A stretch of DNA of 63,816 nucleotides, filler included, from Collodictyon triciliatum (lineage: Eukaryota), in the NCBI GenBank assembly GCA_043381765.1. It is 4 parts of 4 records of this genome, joined end to end, with 100 filler letters (N's around TTAATTAATTAA, not from the genome) between each part and the next. Parts side by side here need not be neighbours in the genome. Positions count along the whole stretch, not along the records: positions 1 to 29,030 come from JBHJMP010000885.1; 3 more parts are not named here. One strand, 5' to 3'. The translations under genes and the position numbers were made by a program. The notes beneath the pieces are model-generated. The model did not search any database. It was given only the letters and a program-made list of their open reading frames with translations, and was not told where the DNA came from. How positions within the stretch are numbered: position 1 is the stretch's first letter; each line of letters begins with the position of its first letter. Below are positions 14,778 through 41,700 of the stretch, piece by piece.

Positions 14778-17700
14778 ATGAATAAGCAGCGTCCTCATCC
14801 GGCCATTCACGGTACACTGCCACACAGACCACAGCGCCAGATGCACATAAATGGGCTTTTTTTAGTTGTGGTTTTAATCGGGCTGTCCGTGCTTTGGGAA
14901 GTCAAAGCATCGCTCAGAACACTCGCCGTAAAACAAGAGACAGGCGAGGCCACCACCAACCTTATCAGCTGCGCACACTCGCCAAGTTTCATCAAAGAGA
15001 CAGTCATCCAAACACTTTTTTCTTTCCATTGCCCACTGATCATTTATTCCGTCGTTCAATATTCTTTATACTTTTTTTTAGAAGAAAAGCGCTTGTTGGC
15101 TGCTGTTGCAAAAGACACGAGGTGGAATGACGCCGGGCAAAGAAACCCGAGAGGAGATCGATCGGGTGAGTAGTTTGGGTGGGAACCCCGCATTGAAGCC
15201 AGAGAGGCAAACTAAGTTGTGTGTAGTCGAAATCATTACTTGAGCGTCGCACAGAGACAATATGAGAAGAATGAAGGAACAGGACTCCCACTAAAGAAAC
15301 CGCTTCGCCAAAGGCACTTCTTAGATGGGTCAACTACCAGCTGGGCAAGATAGAATTGAAGGCAAACAACATATCCTCGGACATGGAGGACGGCTTCTTT
15401 TTGATAATGCTCATGGACATCGTCACAAAAGAGCCCGTCAAAGACTATCACTCGCGGCTGTTTGCGTGAGCACTTATCCTGCTCCATTGAAAATCTACCG
15501 TAGCAAACTGTGTACTTGTAGTGCTCTAAAGGATGTATCATGAAGTCTGTGGATTGCACTGCCACAGAACAAATTCCTGTTTTTCCACGGCCAATTCTAT
15601 TTCTGCTTCTATTTCCATATTCTAACTCTAAGTCTATTTTTTTTTTAACAGAGACTCGCCCATACAAAACGAGATTTTGGTTCAAGAAAACCAACAGACG
15701 TTTCGTGTAAATCTTGCTTCAAGACTTGGAGAGCACCAAAGCGAGGAATCTTTATTCGTCATGACAAAGGAGTTTAAAGGTGCCATTTTTATTATGTTGC
15801 ATGCGCCATATGATCGATTGAATCCGCCGAGTCTCTGCTCGTGACATACCAGTGGATTGATTCTGCGTATCGGTGATGATTCGCAAATGAATAGATATTG
15901 TAGAGCCTACGTTATGGTTTCTGATTGGAAAAAGCATTCAAAGAAAGGATAAATTTTCGGTTGGTGGATTCTAAAACAAAACAACGTAACATATCACTTT
16001 GAGTAAATGACTCCAGTATTATTAATTTATTTTTTTTTGCGTTCCTCTTCAAGTCAGTAATACTCATCTGTCCACAATTACCAGGAGACCGGCCCAGCTC
16101 GGTATTCAGAAGCAAGAAAGCTCTTTGAAATTGTAAAGGCACCTTTTCCTTTCGATGGTAATTACGCATTTCCTTGTGACAATTCTCTTATCCTTGAGTT
16201 AAGTGCGCTTATGGGAGTGAGCTGATATTTTCCACCCTTCGAAAAGATTTCGAACTTGAGGAAAAAGGGACTATCGTATTGATTCGAACTTGCATTCTCC
16301 TTGATAAGGTATGGCCGAGAATATCTCCTCCTTCATATCATTCTGCATCCGTTTCTATTGATTGGTTATAACTGAATTTTAGATGGAAGCTATCCGTAAT
16401 GAGCAAAAGGAAAAGAGACTACAGAAATGGATTCCTGCACCACAGCGCTATACGACCCCGACACCCTTAGATGTGAAAATATTCGACCAATGTGTTTTGC
16501 GAGTCTTCTTATCATCGACCTTTCGAGATATGCAAAAGGAGCGTGACCATTTTTTCAAGCACGGAGCCGTCGAGTAGAATTCAAATCGATGAATGCATAT
16601 TAAACTAATTTGCTGACCAGATTGTATGGTATTTAGCTTCGAATTTTGCACACACGTATTTTGATAAGTAATTCCTTAATTTTAATTACTCTAGACTAAA
16701 GAAGCTTGCAAAAGCAAGGGGCATCGAACTCGTATTTATCGACCTGCGCTGGGGACTCACGTCTGAGGACAGTAGCGAGGGATGGGCAAGTTATCTGTTT
16801 TGTTATCCCTTTATTTCTGCTTCTTTTCCCTATCGTTCTTTTCAAATATGCAAAAAGGAATGTGATGTTTATTCTCTACCCTCATTCAAATGATGAAGCA
16901 AACATGCGCGCAGGTGGTTATTCGGTGTTTGGATTCTATCAGCAAGTGTCCTTACTTTGTATGCTCTCTGGGAGCTCGGTACGGATGGATTCCTGACCAA
17001 AGCAAAACAGAGTTGAACAAGCATCAAAGATTGGAGGAGCTTCAAAAGACTAAACTAGAGGCCACAATCAACGACTTGTGGGTGGAATGGCGCTCAGAGA
17101 CGAACAAACGCTTTCCTTTTATCGATGGCATCCCGGGACTGAGTGTAACAGAGTATGAGGTATTGCGAAAACAAAGAAGAAAGAATTGCTACCGTCCGTA
17201 ATATCCTGATCAAACCATTTTATTCCGGTGATTGTAGATACAATATGCAGCCTTGATTGATAAGCCTGTTTGCAGCCGAGCATTCTTTTACTTCCGGGAC
17301 GAGGAATACGCAGTTGCAAATGCAGAGGATGAGAAAGAAAGAACGCTATTCAGGGCTGAGAATGAAGAGAGTGTAAGCCATCCAATCAGCCTAGGATATG
17401 CTTGATGACTTCTGAACAAATTAAATTAGCATGTGATCAAATACTTTTTTTTAAAAAAAACACACACACACACAAAATAATGCAAGGCAACAACTATCAT
17501 CTAGAGAAAGAGACAAAACGAACTCAAGGCTAAAGTAGAGACAAAGTATGGTCATGTAGTATACCAAGGGGCCAAGCAGTACTCTGATTTAGTCACAAAC
17601 CACCTTAGTTACGCAATCAACAGAGACTTCTCTAACCGCAAAGTCCTTAATGATTGATTGGAAAGCACCCATATGTATATTGAATACCTTAATGCAAGAC

Positions 17701-20700
17701 TGCCTGATGAGTTCTTTGAATGATTCCTTTATTTCAACTTACTATCCAGGTGAGAGACCCGGAAGACCAAGCTCAGCATCAATTCAAGATGCACCGGTTA
17801 GTAGGATTTGGTGGAAGGAAAGAGCTCCTTAAGCGTATCGTAGACGAGGTTTTCTTTGTCTTTTTTTCCCCTTTTTTCCTTTTTTCTTTCTTTTGTCATA
17901 TGATGTAATGGGAACGAAACCCTTTACAACTCGAAGGATTTATATTCTTGTTAAAGACTTTGAATTAGAAAGCATCGATATCTCTATGCGATCTACTTAA
18001 TGTGATTAAAATTTTTTCGAGTGCAGACCTTCGAGCAGTTGGATGAAGATAACAAAAAAATCACTGTTTTGGCAGCTGAATCAGGAATAGGAAAGTCGTC
18101 GTTGATGGCTGCTACTGTTCGAGACTTAGAAGGACTGACCCATCCGAACCTCCATGTATTCTACCATTTTGTTGGATGTACAAATCTCAGCAATTATGTT
18201 GAAAGGTAAGACAGTCAGAGAAACAACAATGTTCTTTGCGTTAAATGAATGGTTGCAACACGAAGCTTCTTCAGCGTGCAGCACATAACAGAAGCGAATC
18301 CTCTTGAATACATCGATAGAGAAAACACACAAAATAGGCAGTTAATCGTGTCATTTTGATGATATTTTTCTTCGTATGTTAGTATCTCGATACGATTCTG
18401 GGGATTGGTATCAAGTGCTGAGAATTCACTTGCTGGAGAAGGGAGAGGGGAAGCAGGTGAGTATTTCAAAAGGCGAAGAAGAGAACTCTTCACAAGAAAT
18501 AGCCATAGATATGAGAGGCCCTTCTGATACGCGAATGTGATAAATAATGGAATTACATATTGTTTAGTATTTAAATGAGTCAAAATAACATACTCTTAAT
18601 GATTTGGCAGAATTTGCAAAAGAGGGAATCCAGGGACTGTTTAATGCTCTATCTGAAAAGAACAGGTGTGTCCAACCACAAGTTCTAAACCTAATATGCA
18701 TGGCTCAATTCTTGAAGAATATTTTTAATTGTCTAGTTCGTCTTTGAATGATTCTAAAGAAGGATTGAAATTTATCTGTACCATACAGAACCAAGAGTAC
18801 CCGATTTGTATTTATGGTTGACGCCATTAATCAAATCTTGCCGTCCCAAGACACACCGGTTCCTCATCTCCTTAACTGGTTTCCCAAAAAAGCACCAAAA
18901 AACATCGCCTTGATAGTCTCAACTATCGACACCCACCAGTCATGCCAGGTTCGAGCTAGAAAGCAACTGAAAACTTATATTTTTAAATCATCTGATAGCT
19001 TGGGCCATTTTTTTTCAAGTTTCTTACTCGATGGATGCAGGTTGCCAAAAGCAGTGGGCTAGATGTCATTCCGGTGACAAAGTTGACTGAGGGAGAGATT
19101 CTGGAGAGCGCAACATCATTCTTGCATAGATATGACAAAACCTTAAGTGAAGTACAATTGAGGATGATACTTGCAGACCAGCAAGACACAGGTATATTTT
19201 GATTTTGATTTTGATTTTGATTTTGATTTTGATTTTGATTTTGATTTTGATTTTGATTTTGATTTTGATTTTGATTTTGATTTTGATTTTGATTTTGATT
19301 TTGATTTTGATAATATCTTTCCCCTCTGTTTTATTCTCAATTGCCACTTTATTTGGTTTTCTTACCATTCTTAAAATTTCCCATTTCACTTATTTTCTCA
19401 ATCCTGAATGCTCATCGCTATTTCCACAAGGCCATCCGTTATACTTGCGTATTGTGCTGGACGAGATACGAGTTTTTGGAGTGTTTGAAAGACTTGAAGA
19501 GGAGCTCAACACCCTATTGTCCACCTCGGGCGTCATCGACCTCTACACACTGATCATTAATCGATGGCAGCAAAAATACAACATCAAAGGTATTGAATAA
19601 ACCAATCCATTCACATTTCCGATGGTGAAACAGGAATACCATGGCATGAATCTGTGTAAGATGTAGGCTGTACTTTATTCGCTTCTTTACAATCCATTAT
19701 TGCAAGCCAAGGCATTGAAGCTCATTCTGCCAAAATACAGGGAAGCCCATTGTGGAATCATCCATGAAAGTACTGTACGTCTCTAGAATAGGAATGAACG
19801 AAGGGGACCTGGATAAATATGTTGAAAGCTATGTGGGTCAGGAATTTGAACTAGCGGAATGGTTTGCCTCTACTCAAATCCAAAAGTATTTTCTCATTTT
19901 TACTTTCATTAACCTATTATCCTCATAGGAAATCCTTTTTCTTTACACTCGTAGAGTCCTTGTTTGTTCGGAATGGAAGGTTTTTCTTTTCTTCAAATAC
20001 CGAAGTGAAAAGATGTTTCTAAAATGTTGGTTGAAAAAAAAAAGATATCTGTATTTTGGATGAATTCACCATGGCAATCAGGTGGTGAACACTGACCAAA
20101 CTTTGACGCATATATATTGCAATAGGTACATGTATTTCCACCAGTTGCTTTTGGAAACAACAAACAACTATTTCTTCGAAAGACCCGAATCCAAAATCCA
20201 GACGCACAAGGATTACGGGATGTGGATGTATGGACAATATGCTGACGAAGCCGATGTCGATGAGGAGCTTGTCGCGGAAATATGCTACCAATTAATGCAA
20301 GGCGAATGCTATAACCTGCTTGTCGAATACTTGAAAAATGACCACGTTAGCCGTCCTTTCTTTCTTATTTGCTAATTGAATATATATATTCTTCGTGATT
20401 TTTGTATTAGATGTCAAAGTCATGAAATGTGCAGGTTGTTATTCACATGCTTGGTGGAAGATATCGGTACGAGTTCTTTGGTTGCTGGAGAACCATCAAT
20501 TTGAAAGGGGTAGCCAACTACAAAGACGTATACATCAACAAAGTCAAGGTATCCATCCCATATGATTTAGCATTACAATGTAATGATGGGTGAAAAACGA
20601 TTAAAAAAAAAAAAAAAGGGCACACTCTTCGATGGTTTTGTAACATTTTTGTACTTGTTGAAAACAGTCCCTCGATAAAGTTGGAGATATGCTGGTTGAC

Positions 20701-23700
20701 TTTTTTCTGGAATGTTTCGAAAACTCATATCTTTCATCAGCCATTGTCCAACGCATAGCCAAGAGACGCACCGAGGGTGACATTTCCTTTCCTTTCCTTT
20801 CCTTTCCTTTCCTTTCCTTTCCTTTCCTTTCCTTTCCTTTCCTTTCCTTTCCTTTCCTTTCCTTTCCTTTCCTTTCCTTTCCTTTCCTTTCCTTTCCTTT
20901 CTTTTTTTCTTTTTTTCTTTTTTTCTTTTTTTCTTTTTGTTTTCTTCTTTTCTTGTTTTCTTGTTTCAGTTTTCTTTTTTTTCTTTTTTTAAAAAAAGTG
21001 GCATCATTTTAAGATTTTCTAAATTGATTCTGACCTCCATCTACGCGAAACAGATTCGAAGTTCTCAGACTATCAAACGCTTGGACGTGTTTACAAAAAT
21101 TTGCAAAGGTGAAAATAGCTAACATGAACAATCTTTGAGTGCAATTATCGGTTGATGCTAATAATATCACTTCATGCACCAGCTGGGATGAGTCGATGCA
21201 ATATTTTCAGAAATGCATGAGTATGAGGCGAGGCACATGCCGAGAAGACCTGGACTACATCGCACCCATCCTCGACGAGATTGGATACATATACCAAAAA
21301 GAAAACAGGCATTCAAATACATTGAACTACCAGACATAGTTTGATTATGTTGACCTGCCATACTATTATCATGATTAATTCTTTCTCATTTGAGATAAAT
21401 AAGACAAAATAACATTCCAACACGTGGCAGATTGGAAGATGCTCTGTCGGAGTTTAGAAAGTCCTATGATATTCGAATGCAACTATATGGCGACCAAGAC
21501 TTGCTTATCGCTCAATCAAGAGACCACTTTGGAGATATTTATTTGATTCAAAACAAGTATGTCAAGCTGAGATATGGACACCAGTCAATATTCCATCCAG
21601 GTGAGAATATAGAATAAACCACCTTTATGATATGACAGAGCGGAAGAAGCTGTAGCAGAGTATAAGGCATCGATGGAAATTCGCTCTAAGCGAGTAGGAA
21701 GTGATCACCCGTTGATGGCAACATCGCTTCAAAACCTTGGGCATGTATGCGTCTCAAAGAAAAAGTAAGGCATCTAAGTAAAAGTCGTTTATCAATTTTA
21801 AAAACTCTAATTATGCCAGTCGTCTTTTTGTTAACAATCACTTGGCTTCTATTCCTTAGGTACGACGACTCTTTGGAATACTACGAAAGAGCTAAAAGTC
21901 TTCTAGAAAAGACATTTGGGCAAAGACACCCGTCTGTCGCTATGGCGATGTTGAATAGTGCCGAAGTGCATATCACGACAGGAAAGTAATAAATAATAAA
22001 TCGGAATGAATGCTAATATCATTCAAAGAACTATATTCAATGATCTAAAATCATAACCGAAGGCCAGAATAATTACTTTTTGTCCGAATCTATGAATTAT
22101 TACCGAAGTCAGTTGGAATATCATCTTTGTATTCACTTCTTTTTTCTCAACCAGGAAAATGATGGCCTTAGCGTTACTTAATCAATCTTTGTCGATTTTC
22201 ATCGAAACAATGGGAGAAAACCACCCTAATGTCGTGCTGATATATGAAAAAATCGGAGACATTAATCACGACCTCAAAGAGTAGGATTTGGCTTTTATTC
22301 TTTTAATTCATGCACATATGGATAGAAAAAGAAGCTTACTTCAATTGGATGAAATTTTGACTAGCCTAGTATATATTGGATTTTGTAGATTCAATGTTTC
22401 CTTGGACTCCTACACAAAGACGTTAGAAATCAGAAAGAGAACAATAGGAAACGAGCACCCAGACTATGCAAAATCTCTCGAAAATGTTGGAAGGACAAAC
22501 TTTGAGTTGAAGAGGTAATAATTCTTTTGTTTTATTTGTTTTTAATTAGATTATATAATATTGTGTTACAATTGTTGTAAGGGAATCCTGAGCATGCTAC
22601 ATCTCGTTATTTGCTCAATTTTCTGGTTATTAAAATGGATTTTCTTTTTTTTTTAAAAAAAAAATCACAGAACAGACCAAGTGTTTGACCACTTCCAAGC
22701 GGCGTCGAATATAAGGTCATTAACAAAAACGATATCTTCTTTGAGTTTTGGCCCTCAAATAGATTGCATCACAAGATTTATGAGGGACAAGAAGGGATTT
22801 AAAACTGTCATTCAAAATTACAATGCGCTGATCAACATTTTTGTTCAACGGCATACTCTGGATTTTATCGGAATCAGAAACTCTTGTCTAGAAATTGATG
22901 CTATATTTAGCGAGCAAAATATGCACAAAGAGGCTTTAGCTTTCTGGGATGAGATGAAAGTAAGGTTTGAGAAAGGTCTTGGATGGATTCACGAAAGAAC
23001 CCTCCATGCTTACGATAGACTAGCGTGTCATTCCGGTAAGATTGGATTGAACAAAGAAGCATTTGAGTTTTCCAGATTGGAGTCTTTTCTTAAGGAAAAT
23101 ATTCAAGATTGCCCTGCTGACTTTGAATATAGTCGTGATGCTGTAGTGGATGCTTTGTTTGGGATAGTTTATACTTCAAGGACTGATGAAAGCAAAAGTA
23201 AAGCCGCATCTGAAGCAATCACTCTTCTGAATTTTATGAGAATCTCATTCAAGGGCATGAACCTATCTAACATCCGAATTCCCTACGCAAATATGAGATT
23301 TTCAGTTGTTGATGGCACAGATTTTACCGGTGCAGACCTTGAAGGGGTTAATTTTGGAAACTCGTTGCTAGGAGGGGTCATATTGAACAAAGCTAATATG
23401 CATAACTCTAACGTCGGGTTGTGCAATAATGTATTAACCGGACATCTTGAATCAATTAATAGCATGTGTCACATAATAGGACCAAACGGAGAACGATTGC
23501 TGGCCTCCGGAAGCATGGACAAAACGGTGAGGATTTGGGATATTGCGCTGGGGAGAGCCATTATGAAGCTTGAAGGTCACTCAGACCACGTAAACAGCAT
23601 ATGTCTTACCACGGGGCCGAATAGAGAAAAGTGGCTCGTTTCGGGTAGTAGAGATAAGACCATCATTATTTGGGATATTTTGACGGGCGAGAATCTTCGG

Positions 23701-24495
23701 GTGATTGAAGGCCATTCGGGGTACGTGACAAGTGTGTGCAGTTTTCATGGACCCGAAGGAGACACCCTTATTGTGTCTGGGAGTGAAGACAAAACCATAC
23801 GCATATGGAACCCCATTAGCGGGATGTTGTTGAAATCTTTCGAAACTGTGACACAAAACGTCTACGCAGTGACCAGTATAAATGGACGCGCTGGACAAAC
23901 ATGGATAGCATCAGCGGGACATGATAAGACCATCAGAATTTGGGACTTTGGGACAGGAAACCAACTTCGAGTTTTACGAGGGCACGGAAACTACATCTGG
24001 AGCATATGTTCCATGCAAGGGCCAAACGGGGAGTTATGGTTGGCATCTGCCAGTAATGATAAGACCATAAGAGTTTGGGATGTTGAGAGTGGAGGCCAGA
24101 TTCGTATCTTACAAAATCATACAAACTGGGTAAATACCATATGTAGACTGCCTGGTCAGAACGGAGACACTTGGATTGCGTCTGGCAGTCATGACAAAAC
24201 CGTTCGGCTTTGGAGCGTCACCACTGGGTGCGAGATCAGGATTTATGCTGATTTACCCAGTCCTGTTTACAGCTTATGCCACATACAAGGAAGTAATGGA
24301 GATTCATGGGTAGCTTCTGGAGGACATGATAGCACAATACACCTTTGGGACTATGAATTCAGTGTCACACCAATCGACCAGGCAGAATGGATTGCACCTA
24401 CAGGGGGTATCCAGATACGCGACACTCAGAATCTGAGCGGCTTTAACAAAAGTGTTCTTGGGTCGTTCGGTCTTTCTGAAACAGAGGCCCACTAG
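14778..24495 (+). CDS. NLR-like STAND NTPase: calponin-homology-like domain, DUF4062, NACHT-type P-loop NTPase (NPHP3/TEP1-like), 42-aa TPRs, pentapeptide repeats, 7 WD40 repeats; about 30 introns; start uncertain
   Basis: In-frame spliced model: LLRWVNYQL...SSDMEDGFFLIMLM (CH, 15317-15465); RVFLSSTFRDMQKERD...IDLRWG...CPYFVCSLGARYGWIP (DUF4062); AESGIGKSS (Walker A); FVFMVDAINQ (Walker B); GHPLYLR; six TPR exons 21183-22514; terminal exon 22671-24495 with GADLEGVNFG and GH...SGS.DKTIRIWD repeats. 16383-24495 is well supported; the join to the CH exons is less so. Confidence 0.88.
19196..19311. repeat. (GATTTT)n microsatellite immediately after a splice donor
   Basis: Perfect hexanucleotide run in an intron of the NACHT gene. 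Confidence 0.95.
20783..20901. repeat. (TTTCC)n microsatellite, intronic
   Basis: Perfect pentanucleotide run after the donor at 20777. Confidence 0.95.
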
Positions 24496-25202
24496 AATCC
24501 TCAGAAACACTTTCTTGTTGTCATCAGCATCTGGGCCACACCCAACTTGAGAATCAATAGGAATAAACCGTTCCTCTCACACTTTTTTTTTTCTACTCAT
24601 CCTCTTGCGTGGCGTGTGGCTATGGTCTCGCAACTGTGGCGCAATATTAATCGCCATCACAACTCTTAATGGGAGCAGCTTCGTCCCAACTGGCTTTTTT
24701 CTGTCATAGTTTCAACTGTCTCATTGCACGCACTGCCCTCTGACTTTGACGGTATTGCGCAGCGGTCCTTTTTATTTTATTTTATTTTATTTTTTTTTTG
24801 GGTGTTTGGGTTTTTGGGTTTTTTGAGTTTTTTGAGCTGGCGCCTCTCTCTTGCCTCTTGCTTGGCGAAGGGAACCGGCGAACACATATGTGGAAAATAT
24901 GCGGGGAACATTCGAGAAGGTTGTGGAATCATCGCGAGGGACGGCGCAAAACGAGATTGTATTCGTGTGTTTGTTTGTTTGTGTGTTTGTGGATCGAACG
25001 CTCGTCGGCGAACTCTGCCTGGGTTTGCATGTCTGCAGGAATCTCAACAACCACAACTCATACAAACCCGCTGCGTGTCTCTGCGCTTCGCTGGAGCTGC
25101 CGAGCCAAACAGACTTATTCTCTTTTGTCGAGGCTGGCCGAGAAGAGAGCCTCTTTTTCTTTCTTTTCCACAGAGCTTTTGTATTTCTCATTTTTCTTTA
25201 TG

Positions 25203-25296
<94 letters not shown>
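25203..25296. repeat. (TTA)n microsatellite upstream of the Hsp70-family ATG
   Basis: Perfect trinucleotide run. Confidence 0.95.
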
Positions 25297-25297
<1 letters not shown>

Positions 25298-25360
25298 GCG
25301 AACAACAATCTTGGTGTTGACTCAACATCAGACCCGACAACAGCGTTAATCATCGTCAGC

Positions 25361-38763: not shown

Positions 38764-41700
38764 ATGGCTGAAAATGCCGATGCGAGCACTGTTCGGGTTG
38801 TCTGTCGCTTCCGCCCACAAAATCAGAAGGAGATAGAAAACAAGGGTGAGATGATTGCCAGAATCGATCGACAAGCAAACTCAGTCTACTTGGAGGTGCT
38901 TACATCTGCTTCTATGTTTACTATTAAATTAAATTAAACCAAATTAAATCAAATCAAATCAAATCATATTATATTACATTATTTGCGTTTTATTTACCTA
39001 TTTACCGCCTGTTGGGTCAGTCAAGCCGCGATACACCCCACAAGTTTTGTTTTGACGACATATTGACGGAAGAGTGTTCCCAACAAACAGTTTTTGAGCG
39101 CGCAGCCCTTCCTGTTGCTAAGTGTACACACTCTCAATCATTTTTGATACTAGATCATTATCCCACAATCCTTCGTTTGCAGATTTGAACTACAATAGTA
39201 TATATACTATGACGAATCACCTCTGATAGTCATTCCGCCATTATCATAGCCAATATTTCTATTTGCATTTTTCTTTGTAAAAGTACAAACCTTTTCATAA
39301 TGATGTAGCTGTTCTCCAGGGATATAACGGAACCATATTTGCATATGGCCAAACATCAAGCNNNNNNNNNNNNNNNNNNNNNNNNNNNNNNNNNNNNNNN
39401 NNNNNNNNNNNNNNNNNNNNNNNNNNNNNNNNNNNNNNNNNNNNNNNNNNNNNNNNNNNNNNNNNNNNNNNNNNNNNNNNNNNNNNNNNNNNNNNNNNNN
39501 NNNNNNNNNNNNNNNNNNNNNNNNNNNNNNNNNNNNNNNNNNNNNNNNNNNNNNNNNNNNNNNNNNNNNNNNNNNNNNNNNNNNNNNNNNNNNNNNNNNN
39601 NNNNNNNNNNNNNNNNNNNNNNNNNNNNNNNNNNNNNNNNNNNNNNNNNNNNNNNNNNNNNNNNNNNNNNNNNNNNNNNNNNNNNNNNNNNNNNNNNNNN
39701 NNNNNNNNNNNNNNNNNNNNNNNNNNNNNNNNNNNNNNNNNNNNNNNNNNNNNNNNNNNNNNNNNNNNNNNNNNNNNNNNNNNNNNNNNNNNNNNNNNNA
39801 GATTCACGACCTACTCGACCGTATCATTTATTATGAACAACACGGCAGATCTAAGCCATCAACCATATCTTCAACTTTCAATAAAAAAAAACCTCGATGT
39901 ATTAAATAGCTTACGCCAGCCAATGGCGAGACTCTAAATTTTTCAATCAAAAATATAGCCAGCAAAAACAACCTACAAATCAGAGAGGAAAAATCACGTG
40001 GCATATGGGTGGCGGGTCTTACCGAGCACTATGTGTCATCAGCCGCTGATGTATTGACTTGGATGAAGTTTGGTCTTAAAAATAGAGCAAAAGCTGCGAC
40101 AGGTATTCTTTCATATTTTCTGTAAAGCTACAATGGCGTCACATGCGAACATTTGCATTTGTTTTTGGATATATATAATATTGCTGGTTGTTTCATACCG
40201 AGCTCTCAAGCAAAATTGTAATATTTTTCTGAAAAAAAAAAGGTATGAATGCAGACAGTTCGAGAAGTCACAGGTATCCAGTTCACTCTATGAATTACAT
40301 CTGAATCAAAGCTGACCTATCTCAACATCTAATGAAAATTAAATAAATACTACAAAATTCGACTTTCTGTTAATGAAAAAGTCTTCTGTCACTTACTGTG
40401 GAGCAAAAGAACTTGAATGATTTGCGCGTTAAGGTTGGTAAGCTATTTCTGGTCGACTTAGCTGGTTCTGAGAAGGTAATTTATTAATTAATTTATTAAT
40501 TTTTTTTAAAAAAAAGCTGTGGCTTCTTTTTCAACCAATTTTTTTAAGGCATTCATGTTTTGTCTGACTTTTTTCCCTCTTTTTTTTCATAATTCATTTG
40601 GTTAGATTTCCAAGTCACTTGTCGAGGGTATTCATTTGGATGAAGTTCGAGCCATCAATACAAGCTTGCATGTGTTAGGCAAAGTGATACACGCACTCAC
40701 TGACCCAAAGGTTTGCTATCGACAGCACATCGGACTTATCCTATCATGTTCGCGCTTCACAGAGCTTACTGACCGAAATTGGGCAGATGACATACATTCC
40801 CTACCGCGACTCGAAACTGACCCGCATTTTGCAAGAATCTCTGGGAGGAAATGCCAAAACTACATTGATTATCTGTTGCTCACCTAGCAGGTATTTCTAC
40901 ATTCTATTTCTCTTTTATCTTATCCTTGTATCCCCATTCATCCTTTTTCGTTATGGAGGAAAAATTCTGTATGAAAGTACCCATTTTTTTTACCATTTGT
41001 AAACCTGACTTTATTTAATCATGTTAAAATTAGTTACAATCTGCCTGAAACAATGTCAACTTTGCGATTCGGTGAAAGGTTTTCATATATTTATTTATTA
41101 CCAATTTAAAAGACAATTATTTTCAATTCACTCCTATACACACACACACACACAAACATATCTTTAACTCAACCATGTCTGCTTTTTGAAAAAAATAATC
41201 CTATTCCCTCGTCTGATAATAATAATAATAATTATAACCATAGGGCCAAGTCAATCAAGAACAAACCAAAAGTCAACGAAGAGAAAAGTGTTGCTGAGCT
41301 TAAGTTGATAATCAATGACAAAGACAAAGAAATTACAAAGCTCAAGCAAATCATATCGGGGCTTAGAGATGAAATTGGGTTGCTAAGACAAGGAAAAAAC
41401 GGTCTGAACCATATCATTTGAAATTATTATTGCTGCTCTAATTGAACCTGTAAATGATTATTTCCCTTAACTTACATTTAAAAATGGTCTATGGCAATTC
41501 ATCTCACCTATAGTGCCTCCATCTGCATCTGAGTTAGATGCTGAGAGTGGTGCAGATGCTGTTGGTGATGGTGAATTAGTGCCGACAAAGTTTGCTAACG
41601 ATGACCCGCTTCTCGAAACGCAAAGACAGGAGCAGATCGAATTCCTCCAAGGCATTCCATCACATATATATATATATATCACATACATATATATCTATGA

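Follow-up and report, generated by a model that had tools for sequence, protein, structure and literature searches.

By the account given in the text of Zambounis et al. (2012, PMC3341825), the NB-ARC-TPR genes of Ectocarpus contain 124 tetratricopeptide repeat (TPR) exons of 126 nucleotides (nt), distributed over 13 loci. The same text reports inactivated TPR exons in the introns of these loci and some positive selection, and it calls an alignment of the whole domain meaningless, so variable are the number and the order of the repeats. Exon shuffling and alternative splicing of brown-algal ROCO genes are the subject of a 2024 paper (PMC11378527). In the leucine-rich repeat (LRR) genes of Tetrahymena, the exons of an array each measure exactly 90 bp and more than 96% of the introns are in phase 2, which the authors interpret as the product of exon duplication (PMC6564038). 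Here we analyze an array of this kind in the freshwater protist Collodictyon triciliatum (assembly GCA_043381765.1). It lies in a stretch of 63.8 kb, which we call the window, and belongs to a gene for a STAND-type nucleoside triphosphatase (NTPase) whose TPR block includes six consecutive exons of exactly 126 nt.

The locus shares with Ectocarpus a TPR domain made from consecutive 126-nt (42-residue), frame-neutral exons, and it shares with Tetrahymena a series of at least three consecutive exons of equal length with phase-2 introns. In the literature we searched there is no report of 126-nt TPR exons in a NACHT-type gene, and the phrase "TPR exon(s)" occurs only in the Ectocarpus paper. A preliminary description of the locus had taken the six exons for the cassette sensor of an NLR-like gene, on which a diversification mechanism comparable to that of brown algae may act. 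Our analysis leads us to a different view. We think that the six exons go back to old tandem duplications of an exon and have since been frozen, and that no shuffling system is at work in them, a reading to which we assign a probability of about 0.8.

Geometry and conservation of the exon array

Two sources of comparison are used throughout. The homologues P0122, P0123/P0272, P0124, and P0167 are Diphylleia rotans transcripts from EukProt EP00002. The RNA data are Logan contigs from four small runs, of which X1, X2, and X4 come from one study and X3 is a freshwater metatranscriptome. The contigs were mapped to 21000-24600, where run X4 contributed none. The six exons, all verified from the sequence, are the following.

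TPR exon 1: 21183..21308, plus strand; 126 nt, phase 2-2, GC donor; TPR_8 match with E 0.047; collinear with unit 1 of P0123 and P0124; without RNA cover.
TPR exon 2: 21431..21556, plus strand; 126 nt, phase 2-2, donor gtatgt; TPR_12 match with E 2.3e-4; corresponds to unit 2 of the homologues; without RNA cover.
TPR exon 3: 21639..21764, plus strand; 126 nt, phase 2-2; TPR_12 match with E 1.2e-6; RNA joint 21764>21860.
TPR exon 4: 21860..21985, plus strand; 126 nt, phase 2-2; TPR_12 match with E 3.2e-6; RNA joints 21764>21860 and 21985>22155.
TPR exon 5: 22155..22280, plus strand; 126 nt, phase 2-2; TPR_12 match with E 1.8e-4; RNA joints 21985>22155 and 22280>22389.
TPR exon 6: 22389..22514, plus strand; 126 nt, phase 2-2; TPR_12 match with E 1.7e-5; RNA joint 22280>22389 and an X1 contig that runs into the last exon.

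Each of these exons is preceded by AG and consists of one base, 41 open codons, and two bases, so that every flanking intron is in phase 2 (the codon is split after its second base). The exons are symmetric, and the removal or addition of any of them is neutral to the reading frame. The introns between them are 122, 82, 95, 169, and 108 nt long. Donors are GT in five of the six exons; the donor of exon 1, at 21309, is GC in a weak context (gcattc). For exon 2 we also considered a 153-nt version with an alternative donor at 21584, which was rejected as it adds nine residues that are absent from the homologues.

The regularity extends beyond the six exons. A 55-nt exon upstream (21054-21108) and the last coding exon (from 22671) enter the repeat at the same position as the six do, and the TPR block hence contains seven homologous phase-2 introns. 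All seven sit at one repeat position, whereas the remaining 17 introns of our gene model are a mixture of phase 0 (eight), phase 1 (four), and phase 2 (five). As a measure of chance, we counted on both strands of the window all intervals that consist of AG, 126 open nucleotides in the same phase, and GT. The count is 81 (plus strand 36, minus strand 45), which means that about 0.85 would be expected in a 1.33-kb piece of either strand. These 81 intervals include five of the six TPR exons, in tandem and in one continuous frame.

These observations bear out the geometric claims of the preliminary description: the six exact lengths, the frame-neutrality of each exon, the common codon position of the introns, and the divergence of the exons from each other (see below). 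Two further claims stand only in part. One was that each exon encodes one 42-residue TPR. The exon start maps near column 18 of the 42-column Pfam model TPR_10 (PF13374); helix B of one repeat, the G..HP loop, and helix A of the following repeat thus share an exon. An exon is therefore one repeat period, not one structural TPR hairpin. The other was that every exon carries a G..HP motif, which holds for exons 3-6 (four of six) and fails for exons 1 and 2. Taken singly, exons 2-6 match TPR_12 (PF13424) with 21.7-29.1 bits (E 1.2e-6 to 2.3e-4), less than the cut-off of 30.1 bits because one exon is only half of the model; the collinear homologues score 136 bits. The TPR_8 match of exon 1 alone is weak.

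How old is the array, and is it still changing? The exons are strongly diverged: in register, any two are 37-48% identical in nucleotides and 10-32% in amino acids, where shuffled exons give 26% nucleotide identity. The seven introns of the block show no similarity to each other (best blastn E 0.027), and TRF finds no tandem DNA repeat in the TPR block. A hidden Markov model built from the six exons was used to look for orphan or decayed copies in the six-frame translation of the window. It matches only the six exons themselves (E 5.6e-23 to 5.3e-20), the next match has an E of 0.27, and the window thus holds no orphan or inactivated TPR exon.

The homologues tell us whether number and order of the units have changed. 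The TPR block aligns end to end with that of P0123 (42% identity over 359 columns with one gap), P0124 (41%, 369 columns, one gap), and P0167 (27%, 331 columns, two gaps). Hence the six units are complete and in unchanged order in all three complete homologues; the fourth, P0122, is truncated at its 5' end and is collinear from unit 2 onward. If one compares every unit of our gene with every unit of P0123, unit i fits best with unit i of the homologue in six of six rows. Against P0124 the diagonal is best in five of six rows and in all six columns. The units are position-specific.

The last line of evidence concerns selection. Between the window and related transcripts (X1-X3), TPR exons 3-6 show eight differences, of which seven are synonymous and one is nonsynonymous, an excess with P = 0.003 under a transitions-only null. 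The last exon shows six synonymous and nine nonsynonymous differences (n = 15) in the same comparison; the contrast between the two regions (Fisher P 0.07) is only suggestive.

Cassette-type diversification acting on the array, as proposed in the preliminary description, is contradicted by these results: by the collinear homologues, the position-specific units, the 7:1 ratio, the lack of pseudo-exons in the window, and the RNA joints, all of which connect neighboring exons (see next section). As far as the data reach, exon order is conserved, selection is purifying, and the isoform is invariant. Within these limits, our data show that the TPR units are constitutively spliced and are under purifying selection.

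We propose the following history. Early tandem duplications of a unit made of exon plus intron would have built a solenoid of seven helix pairs in a large STAND-type signaling gene. If each duplication took along the phase-2 intron with its 42-residue period, all seven introns of the block would come to lie at one point of the repeat. The units would then have diverged by point substitution into position-specific repeats that can no longer be interchanged. In such a gene, the frame-neutral geometry would be a historical footprint: although the loss of any unit would leave the frame open, it would delete a conserved, position-specific element. By analogy with other STAND NTPases, the TPR block would most likely be a rigid, conserved scaffold or partner-binding surface between the NTPase switch and the C-terminal WD40 propeller, and not a variable cassette sensor.

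Several points weigh against this proposal. The search for orphan exons is confined to the 63.8-kb window. The unit matrix for P0167 is not diagonal and is uninformative, because the 42-residue slices fall out of register after a two-residue insertion. The count of synonymous differences is based on eight sites. Exons 1 and 2 have borders without RNA support, since contigs are missing from 21000-21604; these borders rest on gap-free collinearity with the mRNA-derived homologues of D. rotans. These homologues, moreover, are known as transcripts, and the exon structure is read from the Collodictyon gene alone. Rare skipping isoforms may escape detection, as contigs drop rare variants. Finally, identity between homologues is lower in the TPR block (42-43%) than in the N-terminal half of the protein (58-66%). 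Lower conservation would fit a role in determining specificity, with the units diverging by substitution.

Splicing, antisense RNA and alternative readings

Even if the array is fixed in the genome, it could still be used flexibly. One could argue that exons are skipped in a condition-dependent manner, yielding receptors with five or six periods, and that an antisense RNA over exons 3-6 might influence this skipping. That every exon is frame-neutral fits this idea. The direct evidence comes from the RNA contigs. Four junctions of the TPR block occur in contigs of two studies: three GT..AG joints, 21764>21860 (X3), 21985>22155 (X1 and X3), and 22280>22389 (X1), and the link from 22514 to the last exon at about 22671 in one X1 contig. 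The spliced sense contigs join exons 3-4-5 (X3), 4-5, and 5-6-last (both X1), in other words neighbors only, and there is no exon-skipping joint among them.

The antisense RNA itself is seen in run X1, and it is spliced:

Spliced antisense RNA: 21666..22881, minus strand; exons 22881-22822, 22622-22570, 22409-22340, 22236-22104, 21939-21842, and 21773-21666 or beyond.

Its five CT..AC joints, which are GT..AG on the minus strand, all come from run X1 and hence from one study. The introns are 199, 160, 103, 164, and 68 nt long. The RNA overlaps sense TPR exons 3, 4, 5, and 6 by 99, 80, 82, and about 20 nt, as well as the start of the last exon. It has no long reading frame, with stops in all three frames, and behind 22881 the contig ends in a loose end of the template-switch type.

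In favor of regulated skipping are this transcript with five canonical introns that overlaps exons 3-6 and the many isoform numbers, up to i14, that the homologues carry in the D. rotans Trinity assemblies. The isoforms that can be compared speak against it. The proteins of P0123 isoforms i1 and i10 are equally long, and the 10 residues that distinguish them all fall outside of the TPR block. Together with the neighbor-only joints and the position-specific conservation of each unit, which suggests that all units are needed, this makes regulated skipping of the TPR exons unlikely. A narrower version, in which exons 3-6 are a cassette at the level of splicing, the antisense RNA staggered across them influences their skipping in some states, and one locus yields receptors of variable TPR length, appears quite unlikely to us.

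Ongoing shuffling in the genome, the mechanism favored in the preliminary description, does worse. It has in its favor that the unit (126 nt, 42 residues) and its frame-neutrality match the TPR exons of Ectocarpus as the paper describes them (PMC3341825), that the host gene encodes a STAND NTPase, and that the C-terminal half of the protein evolves faster than the NTPase half. Yet the inactivated exons that accompany shuffling in Ectocarpus are absent from the introns and from the whole 63.8-kb window, and exons and introns alike have diverged strongly. Six units in unchanged order are kept by all three complete homologues, down to an identity of 27%; the unit matrix is diagonal, only one of eight differences changes an amino acid, and the NTPase is not of the NB-ARC type. 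In our view it is very unlikely that the array is being shuffled.

Least probable of all is that the gene is mis-modeled or decaying, with exon 1 or exons 1-2 outside the mature mRNA: the donor of exon 1 (gcattc) is a poor match to usual GC donors, the exon has a weak TPR match, and RNA contigs are missing from 21000-21604, but the frame is open over 1642 codons and 25 exons, and both P0123 and P0124 match units 1 and 2 residue by residue, the two junctions included. Moreover, another junction that matches the homologue likewise requires a GC donor (gcaagt, 16786), and the 3' part is expressed, spliced, and polyadenylated.

The gene around the array

The gene model began as a rough dynamic-programming draft, which we curated by hand against tblastn alignments to P0123. 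The automatic draft was wrong at several short exons and had a longer TPR exon 1, and the curated model replaces it. The latter has 25 exons and 24 introns and reads as a 1642-codon open frame from 16383 to 24495; with a calponin-homology (CH) exon upstream, the gene has at least 26 exons. Outside the six TPR exons, the features of the gene are as follows.

CH-domain exon (part): 15314..15466, plus strand; tblastn match to P0123 residues 189-239 with 51% identity, E 1e-15.
Seventeen curated exons: 16383..20776, plus strand; DUF4062, NACHT-like STAND NTPase, and helical region, according to the curated model.
55-nt exon: 21054..21108, plus strand; first helix of the TPR block, ends in phase 2; 72% identity to P0123 residues 1104-1121.
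Last coding exon: 22671..24495, plus strand; helical linker, short pentapeptide stretch, and seven WD40 repeats of 45 residues; stop codon at 24493-24495.
3' untranslated end: 24496..24581, plus strand; a loose end of A's behind 24581 in an X1 cDNA contig.

The introns that follow the seventeen exons have phases 2,0,0,0,0,0,2,1,2,0,1,1,2,2,0,0,1. At the other end of the gene, X1 contigs cover 22680-24581, after which comes a poly(A) run. Among the 24 introns are two that call for GC donors, at 16786 (gcaagt) and 21309 (gcattc). Both are without RNA cover, and both junctions match the D. rotans homologue without gaps. Many short exons, two GC donors, and a spliced antisense RNA make this unusual multi-domain family, from a poorly sampled lineage, one that annotators will find hard to model.

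From N to C terminus, the domains are CH, DUF4062, NACHT-like NTPase, helical region, TPR block, helical linker, pentapeptide repeat, and seven WD40 repeats. Upstream of the ATG at 16383, at a distance of about 900 nt, comes the CH exon, whose match in P0123 is to the N-terminal part; on the open reading frame piece 15275-15469, Pfam CH scores 25.7 bits against a cut-off of 26. It follows that the start of the STAND gene is probably further 5' and that a calponin-homology domain is probably part of its product. To our knowledge, such a domain is unusual in an NLR-like protein. DUF4062 (PF13271) scores 27.8 bits on the piece 16866-17198, with a cut-off of 24.7, and 42.5 bits in P0123.

NTPases of this kind carry a Walker A P-loop, GxxxxGKS/T, followed by a hydrophobic strand that ends in Asp, the Walker B motif. 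In our gene, the P-loop exon (18027-18205) contains GIGKSS, and a hydrophobic stretch with a final D lies in the exon 18789-18948. The assignment to a subfamily is less firm. Exons of the window taken singly match NACHT (PF05729) with 15.1 bits (profile positions 4-48) and 13.7 bits (80-129), collinear in the profile. In the contiguous homologue P0123 the match spans profile positions 4-158 and reaches 25.3 bits, against a gathering cut-off of 26.7, and nSTAND1 (24.5 bits) and NPHP3_N (23.1 bits) come close behind. There is no NB-ARC match in the N-terminal 1110 residues of P0123 (Pfam, E up to 0.1), where NACHT, nSTAND1, NPHP3_N, AAA_16, and RsgA_GTPase are listed. Of the NACHT receptor in the preliminary description, what survives is a STAND NTPase with NACHT as its best Pfam match; the score stays below the gathering cut-off. 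At the C-terminal end the assignments are clear, with 29.4 bits for the pentapeptide repeat (PF00805; cut-off 20.2) and 188.8 bits for WD40 (PF00400), in seven stretches between 23430 and 24380, all within a single exon.

The closest relatives we find are the D. rotans transcripts. We searched 1.84 billion representative proteins with a profile built on the linker and the pentapeptide stretch, and only three (P0122, P0123, and P0124), all from D. rotans, match it over its whole length. P0123 has the same domain order as the Collodictyon gene, and all D. rotans homologues share the six-unit TPR block and the tail of linker, pentapeptide stretch, and WD40 repeats. The curated 1642-residue model is 50% identical to P0123 over 1593 columns with four gap openings; this is the best identity we find, so none of the homologues is the same gene. 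Identity to P0123 differs between regions:

DUF4062 part: 66%
NTPase: 58%
Helical region: 64%
TPR block: 42%
Linker: 33%
WD40: 42%

Among the 120 proteins listed for the whole last exon, nearly all are generic WD40 proteins. The informative ones are P0004, which is 50% identical, and P0039, a WD-40 repeat protein of Reticulomyxa filosa. The latter is 29% identical over 462 columns (end of the linker, pentapeptide stretch, and WD40); the match starts within the linker, short of the TPR block. A search with the linker against longer proteins gave a single match, to a bacterial pentapeptide protein. In a scan of JGI metagenomes with the linker/pentapeptide alignment, tblastn confirmed none of 263 pattern places, and the N-terminal 1050 residues of the rough model, compared by phmmer with 121 proteins, had no match at E 1e-3.

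One part of the gene does change in repeat number. WD motifs number seven in our gene versus 6, 9, 16, and 19 among the homologues. It is thus the WD40 region, which has no introns, and not the set of TPR exons that varies in repeat number, and the WD40 repeats are more likely the variable part of this gene family.

The window as a whole has a eukaryotic character, with a GC content near 0.38, short GT-AG introns, and numerous microsatellites; 1818 of its letters are N, in several blocks. Long microsatellites lie in introns and between genes (e.g., 19196-19311, 20780-20990, and 25200-25330). The intron before the TPR block contains a pentanucleotide run, and intron 11 a trinucleotide run. Rfam (at gathering scores) and ARAGORN found nothing in the window. 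Downstream of the STAND gene, on the plus strand at 25400-28000, lies a neighbor gene with Hsp70-family exons (PF00012, E 3e-10 for 27248-27478). Elsewhere in the window, there is a 1207-residue open frame on the minus strand (58799-62419) with a microbial-type PARG catalytic domain (E 4e-8), for which a word-based search of 5.8 billion proteins returned no homologue. A 589-residue open frame at 56454-58220, also on the minus strand, has no Pfam match. At about 39281-40890, next to a run of N, lies a frame that we take to be kinesin-motor-like, judging by its translated letters and not by a tested match.

Comparison with known repeat arrays

In overall architecture the protein resembles two animal proteins. 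DUF4062, NACHT, and WD40 follow each other in this order in NWD1, and in NPHP3 a TPR array of the 42-residue type comes after a STAND-type NTPase. Weak Pfam matches to NPHP3_N (20 bits) and TPR_NPHP3 do occur in the window, and P0124 scores 89.7 bits for TPR_NPHP3, with a cut-off of 100. We know of no NWD1 or NPHP3 protein that has an N-terminal CH domain or that combines TPR, pentapeptide, and WD40 repeats in one chain.

With the LRR genes of Tetrahymena, the array has in common that exons of equal length each encode one repeat period. This is a likeness of architecture and not one of membership. From what the paper says of them (PMC6564038), the Tetrahymena genes have LRRs instead of TPRs, and their exons are young, similar to each other, present in tens of thousands, and variable in number between in-paralogues. 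Here there is one array of six old, diverged TPR exons, fixed in number.

The closest system is that of Ectocarpus. In both cases the TPR domain of a STAND NTPase is made from a run of exactly 126-nt, frame-neutral exons. A bold reading, which we consider unlikely, is that the 126-nt TPR exon is an old module common to the STAND genes of very distant lineages, a CRuMs-like protist and brown algae. The differences from what is described for Ectocarpus are a lack of pseudo-exons in the window, collinear homologues, purifying selection, and a NACHT-like NTPase instead of NB-ARC. The position of the introns may differ as well. An Ectocarpus exon is described as a 34-residue TPR plus linker (PMC3341825), and in our gene the intron falls between helix A and helix B. 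Judged from the text of that paper, this suggests that the intron point within the repeat is not the same in the two systems.

What, then, does the comparison teach us? A geometry of one period per exon does not by itself indicate active shuffling; here the same geometry is frozen and under purifying selection. Where exon-cassette immunity is claimed for protists and algae, the locus should hence be useful as a negative control. The array is one more STAND-gene repeat array with one period per symmetric exon. After Ectocarpus, it provides a second, clear-cut example of symmetric 126-nt exons that make up the TPR domain of a STAND/NLR-like gene, in a lineage whose nearest database relatives are Diphylleia and which is far from the brown algae.

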